Part shown: positions 6,824 through 63,693 of the stretch, piece by piece | How positions within the stretch are numbered: position 1 is the stretch's first letter | Layout: each line of letters starts with the position of its first letter | IMG/VR virus record: IMGVR_UViG_3300022555_002641 | Coordinates: 57,683 to 121,682 of that record | Strand: one strand, 5' to 3' | DNA from: a virus | Length of the DNA: 64,000 nucleotides | The notes under the pieces: model-generated | Databases searched by the model: none | What the model was told of the DNA's origin: nothing | Seen by the model: only the letters and a program-made list of their open reading frames with translations | Program-made: the position numbers and the translations under genes

Positions 6824-7610
6824 ATATTATGTTTATATTTATTTAGACCCTCGAAAAAAAGGAAAATTTATATATGGTGATTTAGAATTTGAATATGAAC
6901 CTTTTTATGTTGGGAAGGGAAAAGGTGATAGAATTTATAGGCATTTGCATTTATATAAAAGTGATTATACAAATGAATATAAATATAATAAAATAAGAAA
7001 AATAAAATTAGAAAATTTAGAACCAGTAGTTATAAAAATTTTCGATAATTTAGATGAAAAAAACGCATTTAAAAAAGAAAACGAAACAATTTTAAAAATT
7101 GGAAGATTGAAAAACGGACCATTAATAAATTTTAGTGATGGTGGGGAAGGTCAAAGTGGTTATAAACATCGTGAAGAAGATAAAAAGAAAATCGGAGAAC
7201 GTGTAAAAAATTCAGAAAAATGGCAAATCGCAATAAAAAGTGATGAACATAAAAAGAATTTAAGCAAATCTTTAATGGGGCACGAGGGACATGTATTTAT
7301 CCATAGTGATAAAGCTAAAGAAAAAATAAGAATTGCTCAATCTGGAAATAATAATTCATTTTATAAAAAAACTCACACAAAAACTCTTAAAAATAAATGG
7401 AGTAGTGAGCGAAAAGGAAATAATAACCAGAATTCAGTATTATATGAAATTAAATCCCCAATTGGCGATATACTGAAATTTAAAGGTATGAACGAAATAA
7501 AAGATTATACCAGTAAAACTAAATTGTTTAGTCCTACCAGTATAATCAAATATGGAATTTCTAAAGGATATCAAATAATATCCAAAATCAAATTAAACAA
7601 GATTTTTTAA
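6816..7610 (+). CDS. GIY-YIG homing endonuclease with NUMOD3-like repeats
   Basis: YYVYIYLDPR...PFYVGKG...R, N-x-x-DGGEG, and repeated H-x-E-E/D-x-K-x-K-I motifs. Confidence 0.85.
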   Translation: MNEYYVYIYLDPRKKGKFIYGDLEFEYEPFYVGKGKGDRIYRHLHLYKSDYTNEYKYNKIRKIKLENLEPVVIKIFDNLDEKNAFKKENETILKIGRLKNGPLINFSDGGEGQSGYKHREEDKKKIGERVKNSEKWQIAIKSDEHKKNLSKSLMGHEGHVFIHSDKAKEKIRIAQSGNNNSFYKKTHTKTLKNKWSSERKGNNNQNSVLYEIKSPIGDILKFKGMNEIKDYTSKTKLFSPTSIIKYGISKGYQIISKIKLNKIF

Positions 7611-8471
7611 TTTCAATGCTCTTAATAATCTCGTTAAACCGCAACCACATCCATACCTATTAATCATAGTTAAATTCAAGAACTCTTCTAATTCTTTTTC
7701 AACCCTATCTTTACCAAATTCATTATAAAGTAATTTAGCATACATTCCATCTGATATTGTATGAAAACTATTTCTCATTTGAACTACATCCACAGACCTT
7801 TCAGCCGATCCAAATGTTTCTTGACCGCAAATTATAAAATCACATTTATTGAATATTTTTTCATTGGTTAAATTACTATATCCATTGTTTTTCATATTAA
7901 AAAACGGGGAAGTTCTCTCAGGAAAATTTATAATTCCAACAACATCCCCATACTCTTTCCATAATCTGGTTTCTTGATCAGATTCTAAATAGTTAACTCC
8001 ATATTTAATACATAATTCATCATATGTAAATATAGGAATATTATCAACAGAATCAATAAATCCCATATATACTGCTAATTCACTAAGAGTATTTATGAGG
8101 TCTGAAAATATTCCTTTGTGCTCAAATTCCCACATGGGGAACGTTAAATCGTGTCTGCCTGGTATAGGGGCTGGCTCATCACGATATGATGCGGTTAGAC
8201 AAAAAAGTCCATCCAATTTATCAGCATACATCATTAATTCTTTTTCCAAATGCATTTGTGAAGTTTGGGGAAGGGGCCAAATATCACCATCAAAATTAAA
8301 ACTCCTAACTGTTTTTGGGTCTTCACACGCAGCTAAGATACTTAGCCGTGATTGTGGAAATGTTTCTAAATAACCTTTTTCAATAAAAAACCCTCTCAAC
8401 TTTGATATCATTTTGTTAAAGTCTTGAGGGTCAATGATTTTCTGTTCGTAAACTCGTTTGTTCATGGGCAT
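7593..8471 (-). CDS. Class II aaRS catalytic-domain-only protein (AsnRS-like / archaeal-type asparagine synthetase A-like)
   Basis: LPQTSQMHLE, SYRDE...GRH...F.M.EFE (motif 2), QETFGSAER, GCGCGLTRL (motif 3); no anticodon-binding OB domain. Confidence 0.8.
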   Translation of the reverse strand: MPMNKRVYEQKIIDPQDFNKMISKLRGFFIEKGYLETFPQSRLSILAACEDPKTVRSFNFDGDIWPLPQTSQMHLEKELMMYADKLDGLFCLTASYRDEPAPIPGRHDLTFPMWEFEHKGIFSDLINTLSELAVYMGFIDSVDNIPIFTYDELCIKYGVNYLESDQETRLWKEYGDVVGIINFPERTSPFFNMKNNGYSNLTNEKIFNKCDFIICGQETFGSAERSVDVVQMRNSFHTISDGMYAKLLYNEFGKDRVEKELEEFLNLTMINRYGCGCGLTRLLRALKLKNLV

Positions 8472-8538
8472 TTTTTTTTTAGAAGGCAATACCTTCCAAA
8501 AAATGCACTTAAAAATTAAACTTCACTATATATTAAAA

Positions 8539-9600: not shown

Positions 9601-10803
9601 ATGGTAGATGTTGTTATAGATTTACAGTTCGGGGATTGTGGTAAAGGTCGTATAGTCGATTGGTTATCACCAGATTATGAGATTATTGCAAGATTTAATG
9701 GCGGTCCTAACTCTGGGCATGTTGTAAAATTCAATGGTAAGGAATATTCCTTACATCTTATCCCATCTGGAATATTTGAAGGTAAGCGATGTGCTTTGGG
9801 TAATGGTGTAGTTATTGATCCAATATCTTTTAAAAAAGAAGTTGAAATGCTGGAAGCTGATGGTATTGAAGCTAAGGTTAATTTGTGTATATCAAAATAT
9901 GCTCATATTATTACTCCACAGCATATTGTTGAAGATGCTGAAATTGAAAAACGACTTAATATTGGAACAACCCTTAAAGGTATCGGTCCTGCTTACACCT
10001 CTAAGTTTCGCAGGGATGGAATTCGTATTTGCGACATCACTGATGACCTAATTCAAAGTTTCGCTGGATACCCAGAATTTCAGGATGGGTTAAGATATAT
10101 TGTAGATAATATTGCTATAGCCAGTTTAGAAAGATTACTTAATTCACCATACACGCCAATTTTGGCAGAAGGTGCTCAAGGCACATTACTTGATGTAGAC
10201 TTCGGAACATATCCATATGTTAGTAGTTCAAATAGTACAATTGGTGGGGTATGCACTGGACTTGGAGTTTCTCCAAAGAATATTGATAAGGTTTATGGGG
10301 TATTCAAAGCATATATGACTCGTGTAGGCGGAGGACCATTTATAACCGAAATAGACGATGAAGATGGTGAAAAGATCAGAAGCATCGGTAATGAGTTTGG
10401 ATCAACCACAGGTCGTGCAAGGCGTTGCGGGTGGCTGGATTTACCAGCATTAGAATATGCTTGTATCATCAATGGTGTAACAGATTTGATAATGACAAAG
10501 GTTGATGTACTTAATGGGTTTGAAAAAGTAAAAATTTGCGTTGGGTATGCATTGGAAAATGATGCAGATTTTGATCCTGATTATGATGATGAGAATAATG
10601 TGTATACATACGATCCAACTATTCATAAAGAAAATCCAACCCCAATATATAGCGAATTTCTTGGCTGGGAAGAGTCTACATCTGAAAATGAAAATCTTGA
10701 AACATTCATATCATTCATTGAAAGAAAAATCGGTGTGAAAATTAAGTTTGTATCTTATGGGAAAGATAGAAATGATATGTTCGAAAGGATATTTGAAAAA
10801 TAA
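9601..10803 (+). CDS. purA: Adenylosuccinate synthetase
   Basis: QFGDCGKG, GGPNSGH, GTTLKGIGPAY, EGAQG, TYPYVSSS, TRVGGGPF, EFGSTTGRARRCGWLD. Confidence 0.97.
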   Translation: MVDVVIDLQFGDCGKGRIVDWLSPDYEIIARFNGGPNSGHVVKFNGKEYSLHLIPSGIFEGKRCALGNGVVIDPISFKKEVEMLEADGIEAKVNLCISKYAHIITPQHIVEDAEIEKRLNIGTTLKGIGPAYTSKFRRDGIRICDITDDLIQSFAGYPEFQDGLRYIVDNIAIASLERLLNSPYTPILAEGAQGTLLDVDFGTYPYVSSSNSTIGGVCTGLGVSPKNIDKVYGVFKAYMTRVGGGPFITEIDDEDGEKIRSIGNEFGSTTGRARRCGWLDLPALEYACIINGVTDLIMTKVDVLNGFEKVKICVGYALENDADFDPDYDDENNVYTYDPTIHKENPTPIYSEFLGWEESTSENENLETFISFIERKIGVKIKFVSYGKDRNDMFERIFEK

Positions 10804-12497: not shown

Positions 12498-12902
12498 ATG
12501 AAAAGAAAAAAGCCAAATAAGATTAAAATTCCAACCACTATTTTTTATTTCGAAAATAAAAATTTATTGGTACCAATTCTTATCGGCAATAAATATACCC
12601 CAATTCGATTTTTACCATTATCTAATTTGGAAAAATTAAAATCACACAAGAGACTTCAAGTATTCTACCATAAAGGGTTTTTATGCGCAAGCGGTTGTGG
12701 TAAAATCGGTAAATATCTTATAGAAGCACAAGAAGCTAACGGTAGAAAACATATTGATTTATATACCGAAGATTTTGAATTAATGACTGTTGATCATATA
12801 AAACCGAAATCAAAAGGTGGAACAAACGAATTAGATAATTACCAGCCTATGTGTCTAACTTGTAACCAAAAGAAAAAGGATATTTATCACGGCTCAGAAT
12901 AA
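12498..12902 (+). CDS. HNH endonuclease
   Basis: CxxxCG...MTVDHIKPKSKGGTNELDNYQPMCLTCN. Confidence 0.9.
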   Translation: MKRKKPNKIKIPTTIFYFENKNLLVPILIGNKYTPIRFLPLSNLEKLKSHKRLQVFYHKGFLCASGCGKIGKYLIEAQEANGRKHIDLYTEDFELMTVDHIKPKSKGGTNELDNYQPMCLTCNQKKKDIYHGSE

Positions 12903-13097
12903 TGATGACTTCTTTTGAATCTCAAACTTGATATTATTATTTTTCAATATTTTTGCAAGTTGGTTTTGATCCTTCTCATTTATTTCAAGGTACATTCCAA
13001 ATCTTCCACCTTCCTTGGGGTGCAAATAAAATATGACATCATTAACGATCACATCGTCAAATACCACATCATTAAAATCTTCATTATTAAATTTCAT
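12894..13097 (-). CDS. Hypothetical protein
   Basis: ORF track. Confidence 0.55.
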   Translation of the reverse strand: MKFNNEDFNDVVFDDVIVNDVIFYLHPKEGGRFGMYLEINEKDQNQLAKILKNNNIKFEIQKKSSLF

Positions 13098-16610: not shown

Positions 16611-16996
16611 AAGTAACTAAAGAAATATTATTCATGAGTGGATATGATATGCGAGAGATTGCAACTAAAATAGTTACTAATAAAGCAACAGATTTCACAA
16701 AAAAATTAAAGGGTAGGTATAAAAAATTCATGTCTGATGAATTTATTATCGCTTACATTACTTATAAATTTGTAGATTTGTATGTGGAGTATTGGGGTAA
16801 AGGTGTTAGAACTCCCAATGCCATAAATATTGCCTATGATTCAACAATAGAACTTTTTGAAAATATTCTTGAGCATCGTTGTCATGCAACTGGTAATGGG
16901 CATCATGTTGCTCAAATGTTTTCTGGTTATTTTGAAGATGCATTAATAACTGACAAAGAACTTAGAAAATTAAAATTACAAAAAATCGAATTATGA
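16607..16996 (+). CDS. Hypothetical protein
   Basis: ATGA-coupled; C-terminal tag LRKLKLQKI. Confidence 0.7.
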   Translation: MKVTKEILFMSGYDMREIATKIVTNKATDFTKKLKGRYKKFMSDEFIIAYITYKFVDLYVEYWGKGVRTPNAINIAYDSTIELFENILEHRCHATGNGHHVAQMFSGYFEDALITDKELRKLKLQKIEL

Positions 16997-18987
16997 AATA
17001 CTTAACATTATCAGAAATTTATGATCTCCTTTTTGAAGGAAATTATTCAGCAGCCGTAGAGCAGCTCCGTCTTTTAAATGACGCTTACAGGAAAGGTGAC
17101 CCAAAAATAAGCGACCCAGAATGGGATAAAATTTATGAAGATGTCAGGTCTTTCGTTCCTGATGATGATTTTTTCAAATCTGCCGTCATTGAGGAAGTTA
17201 TTGTCAATCCTGAGAGGATGGAAAAACTTATTTACCCTATGTATTCATTGAACAAATTGACAACTATCGAAGAAATTCAGAAAAAAATTGCCAGCAAAGG
17301 GCTTCCACCGAATATTCTTGTAGTCGTATTATCAAAGTATGATGGTTGTTCGGCACTCAATTATGAGCAGGGCCCATCGTGCTGGTCGAGGGGAGATGGT
17401 GTTGAAGGTCAACGATTAATGGAACATTATAAGAAAGTTGGACAAAACGGTCAAAAATTAAAAGCCAATTTGTATACCATTGGCGAACTTATCATTGCTA
17501 AAAAAACATTTGCCGACAACCAACATTTAATGATCAAGAAGGATGGAACCCCATACAAAAATCCTCGCAACATGGTGGCTGGACTTATAAATGATGATAA
17601 TGCTTCTGATTACTGGAAGTACGTCACTCATATTCGTTACGGTATTGCTGATGCCGATGCCAATTTTACAATGGATAAGCTTGAGCAGTTAAAGCTTATT
17701 CCTGAAATTCCTTATCTTGCAATTCCAGCCAATGAATTAACCGAAGAATTACTTGACGGTTTGTATTACAAATGGGGTGAAGACTGGGAAATTGATGGTC
17801 TTGTCATTGACATAAACGATAAAAATATTCGTAAATCCCTTGGGCGTGAGACCAATGATAACCCTGCATATGCTTGGGCATACAAAAAAGGCTGGACAAA
17901 GCCGACAACAACACCATTGATAAGCGAAGAATGGAATCTTGGTAAAAAAGGTTTTATGGCTCCAGTTATCAATATTCAGCCAGTTGAAGTTGAAGGTGTT
18001 ACCGTATCACGTGCGACTGCATACAATGCAAGGTTCGTTCTTGAAAACGGTATTGGGACTGGCGCAATTGTTGACATTATCCGATCTGGTTCCGTTATTC
18101 CTAAGATTGTAAATGTAAGAAAGCGTGGAGCCGTTAGCCTTCCTACACACTGCCCATCATGTAATCATGAGCTTGTTTGGAGCACCAATACCAAAGGTGA
18201 GCATGTGAATCTCATGTGCATCAATCCAGATTGTGAAGAAATCAAGTTTAAGATGGCAGCATTTTTCTTCACCAGCTTTAAATTAAAAGATTTTGGTGAA
18301 GGTACAGCAAAGATTCTGTTTAACAACGGATTCGACAGTGTCAATAAAATTCTGAATATGACCATTGATGATCTTAAAAAAATTAATGGGCTTGGTAATG
18401 TTTCTGGTACAAAATTTCTGAAAGAAATCAGCACAAAGATACGGAAATGTACATTCGAAAGAATTGGGCATGCGTCTGGGTGTTTTGAGAACCTTGGCTC
18501 AAGAAAACTGAAGATGATCCTTGATGGTATTGGGCTTTCGTATATTGAGCTCGCTTCAAAAATTTCAACATCAAATGGTGTTGAATTGTTGAATTTTCAG
18601 AACAACCTACTGAGTATTAAAGGCGTTTCAGATAGAACTGCCGCTGCATTTATGGATGGGCTGGCTGAATTCAAGGAATTCATCAAAGATATTGACGTAG
18701 AAATTGTTGATGTTGTTGAAGATGCCGAATCTGATGCTCCTGATGCAGTTGTTCTTAAGCCACAGGATATGACAGGTAGGGCATTCCTATTCTCAGGCTT
18801 TCGTGATGCCAATCTTGAAAAATATATCGTAAAGAATGGCGGTGAGATAAAGTCATCATATTCAACTAAAGTTACCGATCTCCTTCTGGCTGACATTAAT
18901 TCGTCTTCAAAAAAGACAAATGATGCAAAGGCTAATGGGTGCACGATCACACAAATTGATGATTTCAGGAAAAGCTTATCAGTATAA
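16993..18987 (+). CDS. ligA: NAD-dependent DNA ligase
   Basis: KYDG adenylation motif, SRGDG, NPRN, EIDGLV, C4 Zn finger, HhH repeats, C-terminal BRCT. Confidence 0.95.
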   Translation: MKYLTLSEIYDLLFEGNYSAAVEQLRLLNDAYRKGDPKISDPEWDKIYEDVRSFVPDDDFFKSAVIEEVIVNPERMEKLIYPMYSLNKLTTIEEIQKKIASKGLPPNILVVVLSKYDGCSALNYEQGPSCWSRGDGVEGQRLMEHYKKVGQNGQKLKANLYTIGELIIAKKTFADNQHLMIKKDGTPYKNPRNMVAGLINDDNASDYWKYVTHIRYGIADADANFTMDKLEQLKLIPEIPYLAIPANELTEELLDGLYYKWGEDWEIDGLVIDINDKNIRKSLGRETNDNPAYAWAYKKGWTKPTTTPLISEEWNLGKKGFMAPVINIQPVEVEGVTVSRATAYNARFVLENGIGTGAIVDIIRSGSVIPKIVNVRKRGAVSLPTHCPSCNHELVWSTNTKGEHVNLMCINPDCEEIKFKMAAFFFTSFKLKDFGEGTAKILFNNGFDSVNKILNMTIDDLKKINGLGNVSGTKFLKEISTKIRKCTFERIGHASGCFENLGSRKLKMILDGIGLSYIELASKISTSNGVELLNFQNNLLSIKGVSDRTAAAFMDGLAEFKEFIKDIDVEIVDVVEDAESDAPDAVVLKPQDMTGRAFLFSGFRDANLEKYIVKNGGEIKSSYSTKVTDLLLADINSSSKKTNDAKANGCTITQIDDFRKSLSV

Positions 18988-23871: not shown

Positions 23872-25233
23872 AAATCTACACAAATCTACACCTGTGTAAT
23901 TTTCTCTTCTTGTTTCAACCAATCGATATTGTGATTGTCCACAAGCGTAAATTCGGTAGAACGGCTACCTATTATTATTTTTAATCCTTCTTTCTTGATA
24001 TTAATGGCTGCATTTAAGTCCCTGTTATGATTTGTTTTACAATCAGGACAAATCCATTCTCTATCTGATAATGTTAATTCCGTGTTTTTATAACCACACA
24101 CATTACATAATTTACTCGAAGGAAACCATTTATCTACTTCAACAACATACCTACCATACCAATTAGCTTTGTAAATCAACATTGATTTAAAATGATTCAA
24201 TGATAATTCTTGAATTGACCTCGCTAATTTATGGTTTGACATCATATTCTTTACACTAAGGTTTTCCATCGATATAATTTGGTTTTCATTAATCAATTGG
24301 TTACTAACTTGATGTAAATAATTTTCTTTGATGTTGTTTAAATGTTCGTGATATTTAGCTAATTTTTTTCTACATTTATTTTTGTTTTTACTACCATTTG
24401 TTTTCTTTGATAACTGACGATTTAATTTTACTAATTTCTTTTCATTATTTCTTTTTATCTTTATGTTTTCAAATGTTTTACCGTCTGAACAGATAATGAA
24501 ATCTTTTATTCCAAGGTCAATACCAATCACTTCGTTGATAGGTTTTAATACTTGTTTTTCTAATTCACCATCAATCAAAACTGATAAAAAGTAATTACCC
24601 GATTTTGTCTTGGTTAAAGTTGCTGACTTAATACCAGATTTATATTTATTTAAATAAATTTTATATTCATCTGAACATCTGAATTTGACATTTTTTAGTG
24701 ATTTTGTCAAGGTCAGTTTACCAGTGGAATAATCATTGTTTGATGATATGGCTTCCTCTGGAAATCTACAGGATTGTTTGTTATCGTGTTTAGATTTAAA
24801 CTTAGGAAATCCACTACCATTAACAAAAAAGTTTTTGTATGATTCTAACATATTTAGAATTGATTGTTTGAGTACCTTTGTGTTATGTTCAGTTAAAAAA
24901 TGATAATCAGCATCCTTAGTTAATTCATTATGAAAGTAATGTCCTAAATGAGTTAATGTAAGATTCGATTTATCATTCAGGTAAGCTGTTTTCTTTTTAT
25001 CCAGACATTTATTGTAGACAAGTCTATAACAACCAAGTAATTGATTAATATAATCCTGTTGGATTGTTGTTGGATATAAACGAATTTTAACTGCTCTTAA
25101 CATATGTTTTTATAGTTTAGGGATAAAATATCCCTTTTCTATAAATACTATATATTAAAGTAAAAAACTCATTTTTTGATAATTTATTTTAACTTGTAGA
25201 TTTGTGTAGAATTGTGTAATTTTGTGTAGATTT
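23872..25233 (-). mobile_element. Non-autonomous TnpB-only insertion element with IS607-like subterminal repeats (exact ends uncertain)
   Basis: Four 10-bp GTGTAGATTT-like repeats at 25194-25233 and two inverted copies AAATCTACAC at 23872-23891 flank tnpB. Confidence 0.65.
23886..25103 (-). CDS. tnpB: TnpB RNA-guided endonuclease (IS200/IS605/IS607 OrfB)
   Basis: [13 protein letters not shown]-terminus; RuvC residues in GIDLG, MENL, RDLNAA; CxxC...CxxC Zn finger. Confidence 0.95.
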
Positions 25234-47415: not shown

Positions 47416-48588
47416 ATGCAAAGAATCGTTATATCACCTCGTAAAGATTGGCAAAAAAAAGTTGAGGAAATAGGATTTGGATTTCATACAGCCGATACCC
47501 CATATTGGAATGAAGGTGCCATGTATAAATTTACAATGAACGAAGTCCTCGAAATTGAAAAAGCAACTGGAGAACTTTGGGATATGTGCCTTGGTGCTGT
47601 CCAATATGTCATGGACAATGATCTGTATGATAAGTTTTGTATCCCCAAATGGATAATCCCCCATATTGAAAAATCATGGGAAAATGATAGCCCAGCAATC
47701 TACGGAAGATTTGATTTTTTGCTTAAAGATGGCGTTCCAAAAATGCTTGAATTTAATGCTGATACACCAACATCACTTTTTGAAGGCGGTGTTGTACAAT
47801 GGTACTGGCTTCAGGATTTCGATAAGTCAAAAGATCAATTCAATTCAATTCATGAAAAATTGATTGCTTATTGGAAATATCTTAAACCATATCTGCAACA
47901 TTCTTTGGCAGTGAAACCACATCCGTTATACTTTACGTGTCTTAAGGAAACTCTTGAGGACCTTACAACTACAGAATACTTGCGGGATTGTGCTATTCAG
48001 GCTGGATTGGAAACCAAATTAATCTATATCGATGATATTGGTTGGAACGAAAAGAAAAAGGTTTTCGTTGATCTTGAAAATAATGAAATTTTCAATATTT
48101 TCAAACTCTATCCTTGGGAATTTCTGGTCACTGAAGATTTCGGTAAGCATATTATTGAAGATAAAAATGCAGCATTTTGGATTGAACCAAGTTGGAAAAT
48201 GATTTTATCCAACAAAGCAATTCTTCCAATTTTATGGGAACTTTATTCTGAATGCCCATATTTACTTCCATCTCATTTCGATGAATCTTATCATGTTGAT
48301 TACGTTAAAAAACCAATCCTTTCAAGGGAAGGTGCGAATATTTTAATTGTAAAAGATGGTAAGCAGATTCTTAAAACCGAAGGTCAGTATGCTGAAGGAA
48401 ATGCCGAATTTAACCAAGAGGCTTATATTTATCAGGAGTTTTGCGAAGTTCCAAGCTTTGATGGCAATACTCCAGTGATTGGTAGCTGGGTTATCGGGCA
48501 GCAAGCAGCGGGTATGGGAATACGTGAAACTGCAACTATAGTCACTGACAATTTTAGCAGATTTGTCCCACATATAATTGAAGATTAA
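47416..48588 (+). CDS. Glutathionylspermidine-synthase-like ATP-grasp ligase (YgiC/YjfC family)
   Basis: YW.E, YGRFD, EFNADTPTSL.E, FKLYPWE, EP.WK.ILSNKA, KP.LSREGAN, IGSW, SRFVPH. Confidence 0.93.
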   Translation: MQRIVISPRKDWQKKVEEIGFGFHTADTPYWNEGAMYKFTMNEVLEIEKATGELWDMCLGAVQYVMDNDLYDKFCIPKWIIPHIEKSWENDSPAIYGRFDFLLKDGVPKMLEFNADTPTSLFEGGVVQWYWLQDFDKSKDQFNSIHEKLIAYWKYLKPYLQHSLAVKPHPLYFTCLKETLEDLTTTEYLRDCAIQAGLETKLIYIDDIGWNEKKKVFVDLENNEIFNIFKLYPWEFLVTEDFGKHIIEDKNAAFWIEPSWKMILSNKAILPILWELYSECPYLLPSHFDESYHVDYVKKPILSREGANILIVKDGKQILKTEGQYAEGNAEFNQEAYIYQEFCEVPSFDGNTPVIGSWVIGQQAAGMGIRETATIVTDNFSRFVPHIIED

Positions 48589-57088: not shown

Positions 57089-58624
57089 TTATTTCATTTC
57101 CGAACATGTGATCGGTGCTATAGGTTCTATGGCACCGATTATTGCTTTATAGCCATCCTTCCAAATTTCAGGATCAGTAGTTCTTGAAATTGCATTAAAA
57201 GTTTCCATAGCCGCAGCTACAATTGTATTAAACTTATAAGTCCTTTCGTAAACATCAATAGTCTTCTTCCTGATCATGTCAATTCTATTTCTTGCCCAAT
57301 CTTCATCCTTCTGATTAGGAACATGAACTATATCACCGATTTTCTGATAGCCAGCTTTGAATTTATTTATAAATCTACTGCAACCAGATATATTTGAATC
57401 GATCCATTCGAAATCCTGTTCAGGTGGGCCAGCAAACATGATGTACATTCTCACAACATCTGCACCATATTTTTCAACCATCTCATCAGGTGACACCCCA
57501 TTACCAAAATTCTTGGACATTTTTCTACCATCCTTCTTCACCATGCCCTGACAAATTACACGTTTAAACGGCTCGACTGGAGCATCCTCAGGAATATATC
57601 CCATTTTTTTGAACATTCTCCAGAAAAATCTTGCGTAAATCATGTGCCCTGTTGCATGCTCAGCACCGCCAATGTAATAATCAATCGGGAACCAATGTTT
57701 TATTTTATCCCAATCAAATCTGGTACCATCGAAATCTGAAATGTAACGAATGAAATACCAACTGGATTGTACAAAAGTATCCATGGTATCGGTTTCCTTT
57801 TCAGCATTTCCACCACAAACTGGGCACTTAATAAACTTCCATGTTGGATGATTCGCCATTGGATTTCCGCATCCATCGAATTTAACGTTTTCAGGGGCTA
57901 TAACGGGGGTTTGCTCGTTGGGTATGCAACCGCACCTTGGACAGTTGATCATCGGTATAGGAGTCCCCCAATAGCGTTGACGTGAAATACACCAGTCTGA
58001 GAATGGACGCACTTCATCTTTTTCACGAATTCCATTTTTTATGAACTGTTTTTGCTGCTTTGTGATTACTTCAGCCCAGTCACCTTCAATATCTTTTATG
58101 GAGTCATACATATCATCAGCAAACATTGTAGTTTTGAAATAATATTGCACCATTTCTTTCTGCTCAATCTTTGCACCAGATCGCCATCCTTTACCATCAA
58201 TTACTTGATTGGCTGCCATCACGGTCTGATCTACGGGGTCCCAATTCACCATCCCGATCTTCTTCTCAATAAATCCAGCTTTCCAAGCATCAATAAAAAA
58301 TCTTTGCTCATGCTGCCAGTAACTTACATCACAAGTCGAAATTTCACGATCCCAATCAAAATCCATAGCCATAGCTTTCATTTGTGTTCGCATATGGGCG
58401 ATGTTGGCATTTGTCCAATCCCTTGGATGAACATTGTTCTTGATCGCTGCGTTTTCCCCAGGCATGCCGTATGAATCCCAGCCTATTGGGTGGCATACAT
58501 CAAATCCTTTATTTCGCCAGTATCTGGAAATTGAGTCCGATATGGTGTAATTCCGCATGTGCCCCATGTGAATACTTCCAGATGGGTAAGGAGCCATTGG
58601 TGTCACCATTACATTGTTTTTCAT
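57089..58624 (-). CDS. leuS: Minimal leucyl-tRNA synthetase (no CP1 editing domain, no C-terminal domain, zero Leu residues)
   Basis: MAPYPSG, HMGH, GWDSYGMPGENAA, DWCISRQRYWG, ETDTMDTFVQSSWY, GGAEHA..H..YARF, KMSK. Confidence 0.92.
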   Translation of the reverse strand: MKNNVMVTPMAPYPSGSIHMGHMRNYTISDSISRYWRNKGFDVCHPIGWDSYGMPGENAAIKNNVHPRDWTNANIAHMRTQMKAMAMDFDWDREISTCDVSYWQHEQRFFIDAWKAGFIEKKIGMVNWDPVDQTVMAANQVIDGKGWRSGAKIEQKEMVQYYFKTTMFADDMYDSIKDIEGDWAEVITKQQKQFIKNGIREKDEVRPFSDWCISRQRYWGTPIPMINCPRCGCIPNEQTPVIAPENVKFDGCGNPMANHPTWKFIKCPVCGGNAEKETDTMDTFVQSSWYFIRYISDFDGTRFDWDKIKHWFPIDYYIGGAEHATGHMIYARFFWRMFKKMGYIPEDAPVEPFKRVICQGMVKKDGRKMSKNFGNGVSPDEMVEKYGADVVRMYIMFAGPPEQDFEWIDSNISGCSRFINKFKAGYQKIGDIVHVPNQKDEDWARNRIDMIRKKTIDVYERTYKFNTIVAAAMETFNAISRTTDPEIWKDGYKAIIGAIEPIAPITCSEMK

Positions 58625-58646
58625 AACTATCTATTTTTTAAGTTAG

Positions 58647-58719
58647 TAGCCTCGGTGGGATTCGAACCCACGAAATTATGGTCCTAAGCCATACGGATAT
58701 ACCACTCTCCTACGAAGCC
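58647..58719 (-). tRNA. tRNA-Leu(UAG), short variable loop (type I)
   Basis: GGCTTCG/CGAGGCT-A73; anticodon arm TATGG CTTAGGA CCATA; variable ATTTC; T arm GTGGG TTCGAAT CCCAC. Confidence 0.88.
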
Positions 58720-58732
58720 ATTTTTCATATCG

Positions 58733-58817
58733 TGCCCAAGACAGAACTCGAATCTGCATGCTCTTTCAAGCACAACGGTCTGAACGTTGCGGGTCTAACC
58801 AATTTCCCCACTTGGGC
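58733..58817 (-). tRNA. tRNA-Leu(CAG), long variable arm
   Basis: GCCCAAG/CTTGGGC-A; CAACG TTCAGAC CGTTG; variable stem TGCTT GAAA GAGCA. Confidence 0.9.
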
Positions 58818-59559
58818 GTTGTTTTTTTGGCGGAATACCGCCATAACTTTTGATCCATTTTTTTATTGCGTTATCACTAACACCATATTTCTTGCCAGTT
58901 GATAAGTAACTTGTATCATTTACTTCTTTTAAAAGTATTTCCAATGATGGTCTATCTTTAATTTTTCTTTGATTTATTTTATCACATTCATAACATCTAT
59001 TTGATTTTTTTTGAATTTCTTTGCCGCATTCACAAAAGTTATTTTTTGATTTAATATATTTAGTATATTTTTTCTTTCGTAACTCAGATATGCTACTTTT
59101 TATTTTAGAATTGCAATACGTTACAGTTTGACTATGGCAATTTGGACATAAAATTTTCAAATTGGTTATTCTATTGTCTAAATTATCACCATTAATATGA
59201 TCTAAATGTAAAGTTAATGGTTTTCCATTCCATTCATGTATTCCACAATTTTCGCATATATTTTTTTTTAAATTTTTTTCTATTAATTTTCTTCTTAAGC
59301 CTGAGGTGTTTGAATATGTAGAATTCTTTACTAAAATTTCATCAAGATTACATTTTCTCCCAAAATTTTTAAATCTCTTTCCACAATTCCAACCTTGACC
59401 TGTAAAATGTGAAATATCTATTTCATATAATTTAATATATTTCTTTACAGTTTTATAATTTCCACCAATTGGTCTTACATTTAATTTTCTACAAACGTCA
59501 GCTATTGACAACGATGTTTTAGTTATTTCTTCTAAATTGCTTTTCTCATAATTTTTCAT
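58795..59559 (-). CDS. HNH homing endonuclease inserted in the tRNA cluster
   Basis: CENCG...LHLDHINGD..DNRITNL.ILCPNCHSQT; C-terminal HTH-like; stop lies inside tRNA-Leu(CAG). Confidence 0.9.
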   Translation of the reverse strand: MKNYEKSNLEEITKTSLSIADVCRKLNVRPIGGNYKTVKKYIKLYEIDISHFTGQGWNCGKRFKNFGRKCNLDEILVKNSTYSNTSGLRRKLIEKNLKKNICENCGIHEWNGKPLTLHLDHINGDNLDNRITNLKILCPNCHSQTVTYCNSKIKSSISELRKKKYTKYIKSKNNFCECGKEIQKKSNRCYECDKINQRKIKDRPSLEILLKEVNDTSYLSTGKKYGVSDNAIKKWIKSYGGIPPKKQRPSGEIG

Positions 59560-59633
59560 ATTAAACTTTTTTTTGTATATATAAAAGTTTAATAGTCGAA
59601 AAAATAAATTTCAAGCAACTCTTAAAATTTTTG

Positions 59634-59718
59634 TGGTCGAGGAGGGAGTCGAACCCTCATGGCTCTTAACCAACAGGCTCTCAACCTGTTGCGTTCTTAC
59701 CAATTTCGCCACTCGACC
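59634..59718 (-). tRNA. tRNA-Leu(GAG), long variable arm
   Basis: GGTCGAG/CTCGACC-A; ACAGG TTGAGAG CCTGT; T arm GAGGG TTCGACT CCCTC. Confidence 0.9.
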
Positions 59719-59728
59719 TTTTTATTTG

Positions 59729-59802
59729 TACTCCCACACGGACTCGAACCGAGATATAATCTGTTTAAGAGATTAATGACTAACCAATTGCATCATGGGA
59801 GC
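59729..59802 (-). tRNA. tRNA-Leu(UAA), short variable loop (type I)
   Basis: GCTCCCA/TGGGAGT-A; AATCT CTTAAAC AGATT; variable ATAT; T arm CTCGG TTCGAGT CCGTG (one mismatch). Confidence 0.82.
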
Positions 59803-59810
59803 AATTTTTG

Positions 59811-59892
59811 TGCCGCTGAACGGACTCGAACCGATACATCTTCCGATATGAGTTTCTTAGGCTCACGTGGCTACCAATTACACCACAGCGGC
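59811..59892 (-). tRNA. tRNA-Leu(AAG), long variable arm
   Basis: GCCGCTG/CAGCGGC-A; TGAGC CTAAGAA ACTCA (C31.A39 mismatch); variable TATC GGAA GATG. Confidence 0.82.
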
Positions 59893-59898
59893 AATTTG

Positions 59899-59970
59899 TA
59901 CTCTCACTCAGACTCGAACTGAGACACCATCCTTTTGAGGGATGTACGACTACCATTACGTCATGAGAGC
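59899..59970 (-). tRNA. tRNA-Leu(CAA), short variable loop (type I)
   Basis: GCTCTCA/TGAGAGT-A; CATCC CTCAAAA GGATG; variable GTGT; T arm CTCAG TTCGAGT CTGAG. Confidence 0.88.
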
Positions 59971-59978
59971 AAAAAATG

Positions 59979-60064
59979 TAGCGAGTGTGGGGGTCGAACC
60001 CACAAGAGCACAGAGGCTCACGGACTTTTAAGGACCGCATGTTTGCCAGTTTCATCAACTCGCC
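59979..60064 (-). tRNA. tRNA-Leu(UAA), long variable arm
   Basis: GGCGAGT/ACTCGCT-A; CGGTC CTTAAAA GTCCG; variable GAGC...GCTC; T arm GTGGG TTCGACC CCCAC. Confidence 0.88.
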
Positions 60065-60092
60065 ATTTTTAAATATTTCAAAGAACACAAAC

Positions 60093-60125
60093 AAAAAACC
60101 CCCAGTCTTTCGACTGGGGGTTTTT
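60093..60125 (-). terminator. Attenuator terminator of the Leu operon
   Basis: Minus strand AAAAACCCCCAGTC-GAAA-GACTGGGGGTTTTTT, 28 nt upstream of the first tRNA. Confidence 0.9.
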
Positions 60126-60150
60126 CATGATAGGGTTAAAGGTAACCACT

Positions 60151-60240
60151 TTAACACATCTGTATAACTCTCCCAGTCCTGTTGCTTTGTAACAATAGGT
60201 TGTTGAGGAGAAGTACCAGTGTATTAATGTTGTTTTTCAT
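60151..60240 (-). CDS. Leu-sensing leader peptide MKNNINTLVLLLNNLLLQSNRTGRVIQMC
   Basis: Leu codons CTG,CTT,CTC,CTC,CTA,TTG,TTA (all six) in codons 8-17; GACTGGG (60178-60172) is complementary to the terminator 5-prime arm. Confidence 0.88.
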   Translation of the reverse strand: MKNNINTLVLLLNNLLLQSNRTGRVIQMC

Positions 60241-60245
60241 AATGC

Positions 60246-60273
60246 TATATATTAATATTTTTTATCAAAGTTT
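60246..60273 (-). promoter_or_regulatory. Putative phage promoter of the Leu operon (AAACTTT...AATATATA)
   Basis: Same motifs recur upstream of other genes in the window; ends 5 nt before the leader ATG. Confidence 0.55.
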
Positions 60274-60297
60274 GCTATTTTTGAAAATTTATTTTAA

Positions 60298-60438
60298 TTA
60301 TTTAAAAAAAGTTACATAAGCAGTGAATAAAGTTCCAGCTACCAGTACGGTTGCTAATATTATTACAGCCCACATACTTAACAAAGTATCTCTATCACCT
60401 TTCCAAAAATAATCATACTTTGCAATAAATTTATTCAT
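60298..60438 (-). CDS. 46-aa single-TM protein (not in ORF track)
   Basis: MNKFIAKYDYFWKGDRDTLLSMWAVIILATVLVAGTLFTAYVTFFK. Confidence 0.55.
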   Translation of the reverse strand: MNKFIAKYDYFWKGDRDTLLSMWAVIILATVLVAGTLFTAYVTFFK

Positions 60439-60457
60439 ATTTTTATTTTTAAAAAAT

Positions 60458-60559
60458 CCCCGTTGTGCTTAGCCCTCAACTGCGATTAACCCATACAGCA
60501 TGGTTTCGGTATAAGGCGAATCTATTTCAAGATTCCTGTGAGCTTTTAGCACTTCGGGT
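60458..60559 (-). ncRNA. Candidate structured RNA / 5-prime leader
   Basis: Closing helices CCCG/CGGG and GTGCT/AGCAC, inner hairpins GAATCT/AGATTC and TTATAC/GTATGG; TATATTTG box at 60581-60588. Confidence 0.45.
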
Positions 60560-60611
60560 AACTTTCATTCATTTGAACTGCAAATATACAACTATTTTTT
60601 AAATAAAAAAA

Positions 60612-61136
60612 TTATTTACCAAAATTTTTCTTATTGGTTAAATTCTTCAAATTTAATTTTTCATTGGCTGGCGGTGGTGGAGGTGGTGGTGGGACTTCTG
60701 TTGAAGCCGCTGCGGGGGCTGCTGGTGCTGGAGCTGCTGGTGCTGGAGTTGCTGGTGCCTGAGTTGCGCCTGATTGTGGTGCGGGAGATGCTGGTGCCAT
60801 AGGAGTTCCATCAGCATTGACTTTTGGTAATGGGGCCTGAATAGTATTTGGGTTGGGGGTTGCCAATGATGCAATATCTTGAGGTAAAAATGAGGTTGTG
60901 GACGGTACAGCCTTACAATAATTAATTAATTCGTTTTTAAATTCCTCATTTTTCAATAAATCACCAATTGTTATCATTGGACATTTATCAGCACTTGCGA
61001 TAAAACTTTCACTACCAATTTTATCAATTGTTTCAAAAAACTGTCCACCAAGTGCGATATCATCATTTGTAACCACTCCATTGTATCGCTCACTATGATA
61101 GTTAATATAAATTCTTGCTTTATCAAGATTTGTCAT
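60612..61136 (-). CDS. Hypothetical protein with Pro/Ala-rich C-terminus
   Basis: ATGA-coupled start at 61136. Confidence 0.65.
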   Translation of the reverse strand: MTNLDKARIYINYHSERYNGVVTNDDIALGGQFFETIDKIGSESFIASADKCPMITIGDLLKNEEFKNELINYCKAVPSTTSFLPQDIASLATPNPNTIQAPLPKVNADGTPMAPASPAPQSGATQAPATPAPAAPAPAAPAAASTEVPPPPPPPPANEKLNLKNLTNKKNFGK

Positions 61137-61898: not shown

Positions 61899-62102
61899 TC
61901 ATGATTTAAATATTTTGTTTAATTTATTTTTTCGTTCTTCTTTTAATTTTTCACACCACGGTGGGGCGGGGGATTTTTTGGTTCGTAATGCATAAGTTCC
62001 AACAAATTTTTCTCTACAATATAATTCAAATGTCCAGTCGCCATTTGGAGTAATCCGTTCACTCGGTACCCAACTATGCAATTTACATTTTTCGCAATCC
62101 AT
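61899..62102 (-). CDS. Small Cys-rich protein
   Basis: CxxC...C...PPWC; tag ERKNKLNKI. Confidence 0.65.
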   Translation of the reverse strand: MDCEKCKLHSWVPSERITPNGDWTFELYCREKFVGTYALRTKKSPAPPWCEKLKEERKNKLNKIFKS

Positions 62103-63654
62103 TGATTCTTGTATATTGTTGTAATCGTGAAACAAATTCATCCCTACCAATAATTTCTGCGATATCAGTTACGTGCGGCCCTCGATTGGCTCCAACTACA
62201 AGTAATCTCAATGGTGCCAATAACCTACCAGACTGCATATTAGCAGTGGCAAGAAAATTATCGATAAAAGATTGTAGTGATTCTTTATTGAATTCTTTCA
62301 ATGTTGTAAGTTGACTCAAAAACAAACTGATTACAAACCCACTATCCATCTTCCAAATTTTATCGATCATTTCTTGTTCATATGTTTGTGGAGAAAAGAA
62401 GAAGAAATCAGATTCTTTCCATAAGTCTGGTAGCAGTACAACTCTTTCACGAATAAGATGAACTATTTTCAAAAGGAATTCATTTTCATCAGTTGGTGAA
62501 TTGAAAGGTGTAAGAGTATTAATAGCCATCCCATGTTCGCCAATACATCCATGATCGCCTAATTGCCCAGATAAATAATAAGCTAATTCCTCATCGGTTT
62601 TATTAAGAAGATGTTTTTGATTAAACCATAACGCTTTCTTTGGATCGAATCGGCAATCAGCCTTAACAATACGATCTAATGAGAAAATATCGATAAGTTC
62701 TTGCATGGTGTATAATTCCTGAGTTGTTCCAGAATTCCATCCAAGCAGCGCAAGTGTATTAACTACAGCTTCTGGAAGATATCCTCGTTCTGAGCAACCC
62801 AAATATTTTTCACCAGTTTGCGGATCAATCCATGGGAGCATGTACGCTGGGAATCCAAATTTTTCACCATCCCTTTTATTGAATTTCCCCTGACCTTCGG
62901 GTTTAAGAATCAATGGAAGATGTGCGAAAACAGGATGTTCCCACCCCATAAGTTTATAAAGTAAAATATGAATTGGGGTTGATGGTAACCATTCATTTCC
63001 ACGTATTACATGAGAAATTTGCATCAAATGATCATCAACAATATTTGCAAAATGATATGTTGGAAACCCGTCAGATTTATATAGGATTTTATCGTCCAAC
63101 GTTGAAGAATTCCATGATACTTCCCCTGCGATTTCATCAGTGAATGTAATTATTTCATTTTCTGGAACTTTAAGACGAAATACACAATCGGCACCACTTT
63201 CAATAAGTTTATCAACTTCTTTTTGAGATAATGTCAAACTGTTTTTGAATTGCATTCGGTTGGCTGCCGAATATTTGAAATGCTCATTTTCTTCACGAAG
63301 CTTAGCTAATTCTTTTGGGGTATCGAATGCAATATAAGCACCACCCTTCTTATAGAGTTCCAAGATATTACTTGTGTACCAAACGCCTCGTTCCGATTGC
63401 CTGTACGGCCCGTATGCACCCTTACCGATAGCAGGGCTTTCATCAAATTTTATTCCAACCCAATTCAAAGAATCGATTATATATTTTTCGGCATTAGGCA
63501 CCAATCTTTCCTGATCAGTATCTTCAATTCTCAAAATGATATCACCACCATTCTTTTTAGCAAAAAGGTAGTTGAACAGGGCTGTTCTAACTCCACCAAT
63601 GTGAAGCGGTCCTGTTGGGCTTGGGGCGAATCTTACTCGTACTTTATTAATCAT
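62083..63654 (-). CDS. gltX: Glutamyl-tRNA synthetase
   Basis: VRVRFAPSPTGPLHIGG, RIEDTD, GPYRQSER, PTYHFANIVDDH, HVIRG.EW, KFNKR (KMSKS-like). Confidence 0.96.
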   Translation of the reverse strand: MINKVRVRFAPSPTGPLHIGGVRTALFNYLFAKKNGGDIILRIEDTDQERLVPNAEKYIIDSLNWVGIKFDESPAIGKGAYGPYRQSERGVWYTSNILELYKKGGAYIAFDTPKELAKLREENEHFKYSAANRMQFKNSLTLSQKEVDKLIESGADCVFRLKVPENEIITFTDEIAGEVSWNSSTLDDKILYKSDGFPTYHFANIVDDHLMQISHVIRGNEWLPSTPIHILLYKLMGWEHPVFAHLPLILKPEGQGKFNKRDGEKFGFPAYMLPWIDPQTGEKYLGCSERGYLPEAVVNTLALLGWNSGTTQELYTMQELIDIFSLDRIVKADCRFDPKKALWFNQKHLLNKTDEELAYYLSGQLGDHGCIGEHGMAINTLTPFNSPTDENEFLLKIVHLIRERVVLLPDLWKESDFFFFSPQTYEQEMIDKIWKMDSGFVISLFLSQLTTLKEFNKESLQSFIDNFLATANMQSGRLLAPLRLLVVGANRGPHVTDIAEIIGRDEFVSRLQQYTRINGLRKM

Positions 63655-63693
63655 CTTCTCCAACACTTGAAAAAATTACTATTCCACCCATAA

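Follow-up and report, generated by a model that had tools for sequence, protein, structure and literature searches.

The 64-kb stretch of phage DNA analyzed here in full (the window) carries, on the minus strand at positions 57089-60240, seven tRNA-Leu genes followed by a gene for leucyl-tRNA synthetase (LeuRS), a locus that we propose to be a self-contained operon for leucine decoding, able to sense leucine and to start itself, with an enzyme that probably charges both of the tRNA shapes encoded alongside. Co-transcription, attenuation, charging of both shapes, and the triggers of the switch are all inferred from the sequence. In the proposed mechanism, transcription would begin upstream of a 29-codon leader containing all six Leu codons. 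Fast reading of these codons would allow an intrinsic terminator to fold and transcription would halt, while a ribosome stalled on them would leave a leader segment free to pair with the 5′ arm of the terminator, and RNA polymerase would proceed. The read-through transcript would contain the seven tRNA-Leu (three short and four long) and then the LeuRS, which has no Leu and could be made even when charged tRNA-Leu is absent. This enzyme, which retains the catalytic core and the peptide that binds the acceptor end and A73, would most likely leucylate short and long tRNA-Leu equally, without proofreading.

The locus belongs to an uncultured freshwater huge phage from lake water, kin of the 735-kb LR756501 phage; the nearest database record is the 735-kb genome of Al-Shayeb et al. 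2020 (PMC7162821). Across the whole 64-kb window, ARAGORN found seven tRNA genes, every one with a Leu anticodon and on the minus strand, spanning 58646-60064. The features of the locus are as follows.

60151..60240, minus strand: 29-codon leader ORF, MKNNINTLVLLLNNLLLQSNRTGRVIQMC, including seven Leu codons; homologues in related loci L001 and L005
60166..60178, minus strand: antiterminator segment (region 2), a copy of the terminator 3′ arm, predicted to pair with the terminator 5′ arm
60091..60128, minus strand: intrinsic terminator, 17-pair stem, GAAA loop, and T-run; the first tRNA gene lies 26 nt on
59979..60064, minus strand: tRNA-Leu(UAA), long class II, Rfam 45.5 bits, G1.U72, A73
59899..59970, minus strand: tRNA-Leu(CAA), short, 72 nt, 54.8 bits, 4-nt variable loop, A15-U48, G1.U72, A73
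59811..59892, minus strand: tRNA-Leu(AAG), long, Rfam 44.9 bits
59729..59802, minus strand: tRNA-Leu(UAA), short, 74 nt, 44.7 bits, 4-nt variable loop, A15-U48, G1.U72, A73
59634..59718, minus strand: tRNA-Leu(GAG), long, Rfam 56.4 bits
58795..59559, minus strand: HNH homing-endonuclease gene, 254 aa (phrog_10822, E 2.7e-56), inserted within the tRNA array
58733..58817, minus strand: tRNA-Leu(CAG), long, Rfam 46.9 bits
58647..58719, minus strand: tRNA-Leu(UAG), short, 73 nt, 62.4 bits, 5-nt variable loop, G15-C48, G37, G1.U72, A73
57089..58624, minus strand: minimal LeuRS, 511 aa, 0 Leu, with HMGH, KMSKN, and a CxxC...CxxC knuckle

The LeuRS start codon lies 22 nt beyond the end of the short tRNA-Leu(UAG), and the attenuator is the sole terminator-like site on the minus strand from 62200 to 56800. 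The final 23 nt at the 3′ end of the HNH gene are shared with the 5′ end of tRNA-Leu(CAG); this gene is of normal Leu content and sits within the presumed transcript, which counts against the operon model. A sigma-70 promoter scan gave 25 sites, no excess over the 22.2 in shuffles. No RtcB was found in the 121-kb record, in which the phage genome is roughly 17% complete, and in a search for T4 Rnl1 the control matched nowhere.

The leader and its predicted attenuator

The seven Leu codons of the leader use all six kinds (CTG, CTT, CTC twice, CTA, TTG, and TTA), and the leader-terminator region folds with a z-score of -6.5. When the Leu codons were masked, 11 of 12 nt of the terminator 5′ arm paired with positions 60166..60178 (dG -24.1), a result equaled by none of 200 spacer shuffles. 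In silico, the region thus holds the parts of a leader-peptide attenuator: a Leu-rich short ORF, an intrinsic terminator, and a mutually exclusive antiterminator. The Rfam Leu_leader model (RF00512) had no match in 60060-60640 at E up to 1.

A Leu-rich leader was present in all five related loci, L006 and L007 included besides the two with homologous leaders. The scan for Leu-rich small ORFs gave much out-of-frame noise, and only intergenic, conserved ORFs were retained. With a ribosome modeled on the third Leu codon and the terminator arms made explicit in the folding, the terminator 5′ arm paired upstream in six of six leader-terminator units from five loci; spacer shuffles did as well in 0, 0, 0, 4, 1, and 0 of 200 cases each. 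The arm sequences vary among loci, and the pairing partner varies along with the arm.

A reduced, leucine-free synthetase

In alignment with the Neisseria gonorrhoeae LeuRS (7nua, 877 aa), the 511-aa phage LeuRS covers residues 40-225, 428-586, and 629-788, the gaps falling at 226-427 (the CP1 editing domain), 587-628 (the leucine-specific domain, LSD), and 789-877 (the C-terminal domain, CTD). It therefore lacks the ~200-aa CP1, the ~40-aa LSD, and the C-terminal ~90 residues. An earlier reading of the sequence alone had noted the missing C-terminal tRNA-binding domain, and the alignment with 7nua bears this out while adding CP1 and LSD to the losses. The tetrapeptide KKDG stands where the LSD would be, immediately before KMSKN. 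No match to PF13603 (CP1) was found in the LeuRS itself, nor was a free-standing CP1 (PF13603) found in any of five records, the complete 735-kb genome included, in a search whose control was positive in 14 of 14 genomes. A search for a separate, trans-acting CTD, in which the query was a 78-residue piece from a cellular LeuRS and there was no positive control, gave no match in the five records.

What remains, a Rossmann core with HMGH and KMSKN as its HIGH and KMSKS motifs, is identified as a class Ia LeuRS of bacterial type by PF00133 (E 7e-44), by PDB LeuRS (E 5.5e-136), and by best sequence and fold matches that are LeuRS. Its 19 aligned relatives, at 57-77% identity, all end at the same C-terminal point, and H19, G21, H22, K368-M369-S370-K371, the four knuckle Cys, and the D-W-C-x-S-R-Q-x-Y-W-G peptide are invariant in the 19 aligned family members. 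The AF2 model (pLDDT 87.6) was matched by Foldseek to bacterial LeuRS (TMq 0.87-0.89) and to Mycoplasma mobile LeuRS 3ZIU (TMq 0.86, TMt 0.71). This conservation suggests that the enzyme would be active without the three modules.

The CTD and LSD of LeuRS are described as contacting the elbow and variable arm of tRNA-Leu (PMC6614811, PMC3643597), and E. coli LeuRS is reported to be inactive once its LSD is deleted (PMC3643597). It is very unlikely that the phage protein is something other than a charging enzyme (a degenerate relic, a sensor of leucine, or a protein with another role), leaving the tRNAs wholly dependent on the host enzyme. Such a protein would fit the absence of three domains, two of which (LSD and CTD) are said to be required by E. 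coli LeuRS (PMC6614811, PMC3643597), but not the invariance of HxGH, KMSK, the zinc-knuckle Cys, and the acceptor-binding peptide, the uniform length of about 47 phage relatives, or the confidently modeled LeuRS fold; moreover, M. mobile LeuRS is reported to function without CP1 and LSD (PMC3643597). We favor a charging enzyme, and since its editing, leucine-specific, and elbow-binding domains are lost, it most likely accepts both shapes, with no proofreading. A natural 511-aa LeuRS lacking three modules that are considered important for the E. coli enzyme would also be useful for defining a minimal tRNA-Leu recognition set.

None of the 511 residues of this protein is Leu, whereas 43 other window ORFs average 8.0% Leu (P about 3e-19), and it is alone in having no Leu among the 75 window ORFs of at least 100 aa. 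Among the matches listed, 49 relatives are shorter than 700 aa, with 0 Leu in 42, one in five, and 2 in one; the remaining outlier is a 336-aa piece with 8 Leu. For comparison, no fewer than 6.3% of residues are Leu in any of 71 cellular-size LeuRS, whose median is 8.0%. Against four cellular LeuRS, 38-47 aligned Leu positions are occupied chiefly by Met, Ile, and Phe in the phage enzyme. Having no leucine, the LeuRS is translatable even without any charged tRNA-Leu.

Leu content is ordinary (4.4-12.4%) in another family of phage mini-LeuRS, about 420 aa long, so zero Leu is not required of every phage LeuRS. We rejected a cognate-free composition as a general rule, as a GluRS-like gene has 7.4% Glu. 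The gene for a CCA-adding enzyme beyond the window is Leu-rich. The concept of "low cognate bias" comes from work on biosynthetic enzymes, and the family-wide purge of a synthetase's own amino acid would be an extreme form of it. Combined with the six-codon leader, the Leu-free enzyme suggests how a virus can render one branch of translation self-starting.

Short and long tRNA-Leu

All seven tRNA genes match the Rfam tRNA model RF00005 (44.7-62.4 bits; gathering score 29), and together they cover all six Leu codons. The long arm of bacterial tRNA-Leu is present in four of the seven (CAG, GAG, AAG, and UAA; 82-86 nt, class II) and absent from three (UAG, UAA, and CAA), whose variable regions of 5, 4, and 4 nt have no extra stem (type I). 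ARAGORN and Rfam placed the short genes exactly where the sequence-only reading had put them, with the 4-5-nt loops, A73, and G1.U72 it had described. It was equally correct that UAA occurs in both shapes, the long gene at 59979-60064, which also has G1.U72, standing beside the short one at 59729-59802. As a hallmark of the short shape, G1.U72 was rejected: 20 of 30 tRNA-Leu of that shape carry it, but so do 16 of the 36 long ones. In the window, Leu codon use is led by TTA (36%), CTT (30%), and TTG (17.5%), and the tRNA set fits it, UAA being present twice and CTT/CTC decoding being served by a GAG as well as an AAG tRNA.

The cloverleaf of the short tRNA-Leu is real and under selection. In an alignment of 27 short tRNA-Leu from the window and 12 LeuRS-linked phage loci (27 of 30, the 76-77-nt L013 UAA, L017 GAG, and L036 UAA being omitted to limit gaps), 96.9% of 540 cells were paired, whereas slid controls were 32-47% paired. 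Compensatory changes occurred in 20 of 20 cloverleaf pairs, which 0 of 500 shuffles equaled. Leu identity in E. coli is reported to lie in A73, A14, A15-U48, and G18G19, with armless variants still active (PMC9976931). These elements and the Leu anticodon are all present in the three short genes of the window, except that UAG has G15-C48; among the phage short tRNAs, A14 is found in 27 of 27, the hinge pair A15-U48 in 22 of 27, and the discriminator A73 in 27 of 30. The closest relative of the short UAA gene is the short CAA gene, 74.6% alike outside the anticodon. One related phage locus, L007, carries a tRNA-Arg(UCU) whose body resembles that of short tRNA-Leu.

The missing class II arm and that similar tRNA-Arg body might suggest that the short tRNAs accept another amino acid or serve as decoys, recoding leucine codons. 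This is extremely unlikely: the Leu elements are retained, the anticodon switches of the lineage remain within Leu (as the likeness of the window UAA and CAA genes illustrates), the setting is a predicted Leu-sensing operon with a LeuRS, and ordinary ORFs, at 8% Leu codons, give no sign of recoding. Judged by sequence, the short genes encode genuine tRNA-Leu, whose shape is widespread among phages, and not private substrates of the phage LeuRS.

Short tRNA-Leu and a C-terminally truncated LeuRS co-occur in the window and in L001, L005, and L007, all from related huge phages, and their adjacency is kept in four of the five loci of the Leu-free clade. Every LeuRS-linked locus with a short tRNA-Leu also has a long one (14 of 14), and five more loci have long forms only. 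Shape and anticodon are exchanged among relatives, CAA being short in the window and L005 and long in L001. A structure-aware DNA pattern scan of IMG/VR found at least 77 loci with an ARAGORN-supported short tRNA-Leu(UAA) (77 of 80 among the matches listed). From these listed matches, a LeuRS homologue occurred in just one of 50 whole records and in one of nine that are at least 90% complete; the records without it include phages of 159-416 kb. In 45 of the 50 listed loci the G+C content is below 50%, so the carriers are not just actinophages. When two short tRNAs were used as BLASTN queries on the phage collection, nothing matched, the queries being too short.

These distributions bear on an earlier proposal of a coevolved, possibly orthogonal pair, in which the host LeuRS would ignore the short tRNAs, the phage LeuRS would be independent of the host's, and the short shape would evade nucleases or toxins directed at class II. 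The adjacency behind that proposal stood and recurs in relatives, and the proposal would also accord with the loss of the CTD and LSD, with their reported elbow and variable-arm contacts, with the reported failure of E. coli LeuRS on one type I tRNA-Leu (PMC6614811), and with a Leu-free composition suggesting that host leucylation can be entirely off. Its exclusivity did not stand, as the two partners do not occur only together: long tRNA-Leu share the operon in all 14 short-bearing loci, five LeuRS loci have long forms only, shapes are exchanged among relatives, 49 of 50 whole and eight of nine near-complete records from the matches listed have no LeuRS, and short-tRNA loci are mostly low in G+C. 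We thus consider an orthogonal pair quite unlikely. Likewise, the view that a short tRNA-Leu is unusual holds for bacteria, as far as PMC9976931 and PMC6614811 describe them, but not for phages, given the at least 77 loci among the matches listed.

As E. coli LeuRS is reported unable to charge the Streptomyces coelicolor type I tRNA, host LeuRS may refuse the short forms, giving the phage enzyme a special role. On this basis, the phage LeuRS might charge all seven tRNAs and be needed mainly where host LeuRS is poor on short forms, the Leu-free composition and leader tuning supply. The reported role of the LSD in deciding acceptance (PMC6614811) and the tetrapeptide that replaces it, as in the M. 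mobile enzyme, speak for this version, but short tRNA-Leu occur in many phages that have no LeuRS and differ in G+C, and zero Leu in the enzyme would be left unexplained; we regard it as unlikely.

In a further reading, which we consider rather unlikely, the leucine-sensing operon would serve to reboot a cell whose leucine decoding was purposely disabled, by host abortive infection or by the phage's own shut-off, through a hit on host LeuRS or class II tRNA-Leu. The all-six-codon leader would detect the collapse, the Leu-free LeuRS would be the only protein still makeable, and the armless tRNAs would outlive the attack and be favored by the elbow-blind enzyme. If so, the pair would be semi-private in vivo by function, though armless tRNA-Leu exist elsewhere.

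As armless tRNA-Leu are common in synthetase-less phages, orthogonality is not to be assumed, and for genetic-code engineering the locus offers caution rather than a ready-made orthogonal pair.

Comparison with known systems

The E. coli pheST leader places a synthetase operon under ribosome-mediated attenuation. The leu operon leader (RF00512) likewise consists of a codon-rich short ORF, alternative 1:2, 2:3, and 3:4 hairpins, and an intrinsic terminator. Unlike either, the phage leader would govern tRNA genes together with a synthetase, and every one of the six synonymous codons is represented in it.

Huge-phage genomes are reported to carry up to 67 tRNAs and 15 aminoacyl-tRNA synthetases each (Al-Shayeb et al. 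2020, PMC7162821), and the phages of that study belong to the same group as the window phage. The available portion of PMC7162821 makes no mention of LeuRS, short tRNA-Leu, Leu-free composition, or leaders, though its supplementary tables may list them. A literature search turned up no description of armless tRNA-Leu in phages, nor of a phage LeuRS devoid of leucine or its leader, although supplementary files may list the genes.

Animal mitochondrial tRNA-Leu are also armless and are described as recognized mainly via A73 and A14, a UAA and UAG set sufficing for the six codons (PMC9976931, PMC6614811). However, mitochondrial LeuRS is reported to share the domain set of its E. coli counterpart, and long and short forms are not mixed in one compartment (PMC6614811, PMC9976931). 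In S. coelicolor, which has a type I tRNA-Leu(CAA), short and long forms are reported to share one compartment and a single LeuRS charges both (Fan et al. 2019, PMC6614811). That LeuRS is full-size and is described as accepting the short form by means of its LSD, whereas the phage LeuRS has no LSD; A73 is reported to be no identity element in S. coelicolor (PMC6614811), while it is kept in 27 of 30 phage short tRNAs.

By fold, the closest architectural match to the phage enzyme is M. mobile LeuRS (3ZIU, TMt 0.71), a natural minimal LeuRS of bacterial type (Yan et al. 2013, PMC3643597). It is also without CP1, and its LSD is replaced by the tetrapeptide GKDG, where the phage has KKDG. The M. 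mobile enzyme is cellular and serves class II tRNA-Leu, and the consulted portion of PMC3643597 reports no lack of Leu in it. Its 637-aa chain retains the C-terminal tRNA-binding domain that the phage enzyme does not have, so the phage LeuRS is reduced further than the M. mobile type.

A tRNA-Leu array beside a leucine-free LeuRS

By ARAGORN the window has seven tRNA genes; each carries a leucine anticodon and lies on the minus strand within 58646–60064. The Rfam tRNA model finds all seven at 44.7–62.4 bits (gathering score 29), and a search of the whole 121-kb record gives six tRNA matches, none outside the cluster. Three of the genes are short, or type I, forms without a long variable arm, and a LeuRS ORF starts 22 nt past the last tRNA gene.

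57089–58624 (−): LeuRS ORF, 511 residues; HMGH and KMSKN motifs present
58647–58719 (−): short tRNA-Leu(UAG), 73 nt, 5-nt variable loop
59729–59802 (−): short tRNA-Leu(UAA), 74 nt, 4-nt variable loop
59899–59970 (−): short tRNA-Leu(CAA), 72 nt, 4-nt variable loop

The coordinates and 4–5-nt variable loops that the sequence-only reading had given for these three tRNAs agree exactly with ARAGORN and Rfam, and the A73 and G1.U72 it described are present in all three. The other four genes (UAA, AAG, GAG and CAG) are ordinary long-arm forms, and UAA was correctly noted to occur in both shapes. None of the seven encodes CCA, and a C directly follows each. A CCA-adding enzyme of the phage (PF01743, 430 aa, not Leu-poor) lies ~4.7 kb before the window (G000:C1:51728–53020; L205 729–2021).

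The array is interrupted by a low-G+C HNH homing-endonuclease gene (58795–59559, −), whose last 23 nt overlap the 5′ end of tRNA-Leu(CAG); L001, a related phage locus with a Leu-free LeuRS, has a different GIY-YIG/HNH-like ORF between array and LeuRS. The long CUN-reading tRNAs CAG (58733–58817), GAG (59634–59718) and AAG (59811–59892), all on the minus strand, carry A37, whereas the short UAG tRNA carries G37. A tRNA-Leu(AAG) with A34 is uncommon in bacteria.

The LeuRS contains no leucine in its 511 residues and is the sole Leu-free ORF among the 75 of at least 100 aa in the window; leucine makes up 8.0% of the other window ORFs (P about 3e-19). The 49 listed database relatives below 700 aa are similar, with no leucine in 42, one in five, two in one and eight in one 336-aa piece. 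In 71 cellular-size LeuRSs the median is 8.0% and the minimum 6.3%. At the leucine positions of four cellular enzymes (38–47 aligned in each), the phage enzyme mostly has Met, Ile or Phe. A second, distant phage mini-LeuRS family (IMG/VR loci L008–L065; ~405–440 aa, ~35% identical), found on contigs of up to 607 kb and often adjoining mixed short and long tRNA-Leu, has a normal 4.4–12.4% Leu; zero leucine is therefore a trait of the LeuRS clade in the window and not of phage LeuRSs generally.

The enzyme matches Pfam tRNA-synt_1 and solved LeuRS structures (E 5.5e-136). Since it aligns only to residues 40–225, 428–586 and 629–788 of the 877-residue N. gonorrhoeae LeuRS, three modules are absent: the editing domain CP1, the leucine-specific domain and the final ~90 residues with the C-terminal tRNA-binding domain, whose loss had been recognized from the sequence. 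The enzyme would thus do no proofreading. KKDG stands at the leucine-specific domain position, resembling the GKDG tetrapeptide described for M. mobile LeuRS (PMC3643597). The AlphaFold prediction, for which 19 relatives were used, has high confidence (pLDDT 87.6) and superposes on bacterial LeuRS with TMq 0.87–0.89 and on the M. mobile enzyme with TMq 0.86 and TMt 0.71. Three relatives (P0037, P0039 and P0041) are ~646-aa variants, still with no leucine, in which a remnant of ~100 residues persists where CP1 would lie (a precomputed PF13603 match). A separate CP1 domain was found in none of five records (that of the window, a complete 735-kb genome and three other relatives; control 14 of 14), nor was a separate C-terminal domain found in a search that had no positive control.

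Across 19 aligned family members (57–77% identity), the residues of HxGH and KMSK do not vary, nor do four knuckle cysteines or a D-W-C-x-S-R-Q-x-Y-W-G peptide, and all 19 share a common C-terminal end point. In E. coli LeuRS it is this peptide that holds A73, according to Fan et al. (PMC6614811). We give little weight to the possibility that the LeuRS-like protein is inactive as an enzyme.

Short tRNA-Leu and the question of a private pair

We aligned 27 short tRNA-Leu, drawn from the window and from 12 phage loci linked to a LeuRS; three others, of 76–77 nt, were excluded. In this alignment 96.9% of 540 cells are paired, with compensatory changes at 20 of 20 pairs; none of 500 shuffles equalled the result, and slid controls were 32–47% paired. 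On this comparative evidence, the short cloverleaf is under selection. A14 is present in 27/27, A15-U48 in 22/27 and A73 in 27/30, and for E. coli leucine identity a review (PMC9976931) describes the long arm as dispensable, with A73, A14, A15-U48 and G18G19 mattering. G1.U72 was rejected as a mark of short forms, being found in 20/30 short and 16/36 long tRNA-Leu.

The short tRNAs and LeuRS had been proposed to form a co-evolved, possibly orthogonal pair. Among 63 LeuRS-like loci (the window, L001 and L005–L065, including some near-duplicate contigs and two full-size enzymes), 19 have tRNA-Leu inside the fetched flanks; 14 hold the short form, always together with long ones, and five hold long forms only. 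Shape also swaps between relatives: tRNA-Leu(CAA) is short in the window and L005 and long in L001, and UAG is both short and long within L001. The closest relative of the window's short UAA gene is the short CAA gene, and vice versa (74.6% outside the anticodon). Judging from these genes, there is no fixed link between anticodon and tRNA shape. The acceptor stem and D arm of a tRNA-Arg(UCU) (L007 7187–7260; the same tRNA at L004 5187–5260) resemble the short tRNA-Leu(UAG) of L001 and L005, a likeness that may reflect anticodon remoulding between isoacceptor families.

An armless tRNA-Leu(UAA) pattern matched at least 120 stretches of IMG/VR, and among the matches listed it fell inside an ARAGORN-called short tRNA-Leu(UAA) in 77 of 80 loci. 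A phage LeuRS profile was searched in the whole records behind 50 of these 77 listed loci; one of the 50, a 607-kb phage, has a homologue. Nine of the records are at least 90% complete, and in eight of them none was found, among them phages of 159, 166, 353 and 416 kb. The gene content thus argues against a private pair. In 45 of the 50 listed loci G+C is below 50%, and short tRNA-Leu is therefore not solely an actinophage trait. Among the matches listed, Ser tRNAs of these loci stay long (1/41 short) and Tyr tRNAs are mostly long (3/20 short), which agrees with the dispensability of the long arm for E. coli leucine identity (PMC9976931). We give little weight to a non-leucine identity of the short tRNAs.

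Because the modules touching the elbow or variable arm are all lost, the LeuRS would most likely accept both tRNA shapes, via the acceptor end. A complementary or semi-private role of the phage enzyme deserves some weight, since type I tRNA-Leu of S. coelicolor is reported not to be chargeable by E. coli LeuRS (PMC6614811) and a zero-leucine enzyme hints at situations in which leucylation by the host has failed altogether.

Leader ORF and predicted attenuator

Two elements precede the array.

60151–60240 (−): leader ORF of 29 codons, MKNNINTLVLLLNNLLLQSNRTGRVIQMC, upstream of the tRNA array
60128–60091 (−): 17-pair terminator, 22 nt past the leader ORF and 26 nt before the first tRNA gene

The seven leucine codons of the leader (CTG, CTT, CTC, CTC, CTA, TTG and TTA) comprise all six kinds. 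Folding of the leader-terminator RNA is much more stable than that of shuffles (z = −6.5), and in the predicted structure a downstream segment pairs with the first four of the Leu codons. With a ribosome modelled on the Leu codons, that same segment (60166–60178) instead pairs with 11 of the 12 nt of the terminator 5′ arm, which none of 200 spacer shuffles did as well.

At each of the five Leu-free-LeuRS loci (window, L001, L005, L006 and L007) a Leu-rich leader precedes a terminator; the unit lies before the tRNA-Leu array or directly before LeuRS, and in L007 at both positions. Homology is plain to see among the window, L001 and L005 leaders, and that of L001 also holds all six codons. Antiterminator pairing is predicted in six of six units (matched by 0, 0, 0, 4, 1 and 0 of 200 spacer shuffles), and, as terminator arm sequences vary by locus, the upstream partner changes along with the arm. 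L001 has a tRNA-like element (12897–12981, −; Rfam tRNA 38.5 bits) between attenuator and first tRNA-Leu, uncalled by ARAGORN, with a poor acceptor stem and 24 nt in place of the 11 of the anticodon loop region; a similar sequence lies in L005 (about 7470–7560), and the window has none.

We read the locus as a putative leucine-sensing, self-starting leucine-decoding operon. Slow reading of any Leu codon would open the attenuator; the tRNAs require no translation, and the LeuRS requires no leucine for its own synthesis.

The source phage and known counterparts

The window makes up the 3′ half of an IMG/VR virus record of 121,682 bases. Its estimated completeness of 17% points to a genome several hundred kb in size; as the record is a fragment, absences inside it mean little. 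The nearest named relative is the uncultured phage LR756501 (735 kb), whose LeuRS gene has 75% DNA and 81.5% protein identity. For genomes >634 kb, the huge-phage paper predicts Bacteroidetes hosts (PMC7162821). The tRNA-Leu set fits the codon use of the phage (TTA 36%, CTT 30%, TTG 17.5%).

A 527-aa full-size GluRS/GlnRS-type synthetase (PF00749 and Anticodon_2; 62083–63666, −) has an ordinary 7.4% Glu, so avoidance of the cognate amino acid is not general to the synthetases of this phage. A 298-aa class II core (PF00152, D/K/N type; 7593–8489, −), in which no anticodon-binding domain was detected, may be a synthetase paralogue. Other cargo of the fragment is as follows.

3990–5939 (−): collagen-repeat protein, almost without Glu
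9601–10803 (+): adenylosuccinate synthetase
16993–18987 (+): NAD-dependent DNA ligase
23886–25103 (−): TnpB/IS605 OrfB element
47416–48588 (+): glutathionylspermidine synthase

Full-text searches covering the main text of papers turned up no account of a LeuRS free of leucine, of a leader with all six Leu codons or of armless phage tRNA-Leu. Leader-peptide attenuation is a known mechanism. Minimal LeuRS is described in M. mobile (PMC3643597), type I tRNA-Leu in animal mitochondria and S. coelicolor (PMC6614811, PMC9976931), and aminoacyl-tRNA synthetase and tRNA genes in huge phages (PMC7162821).
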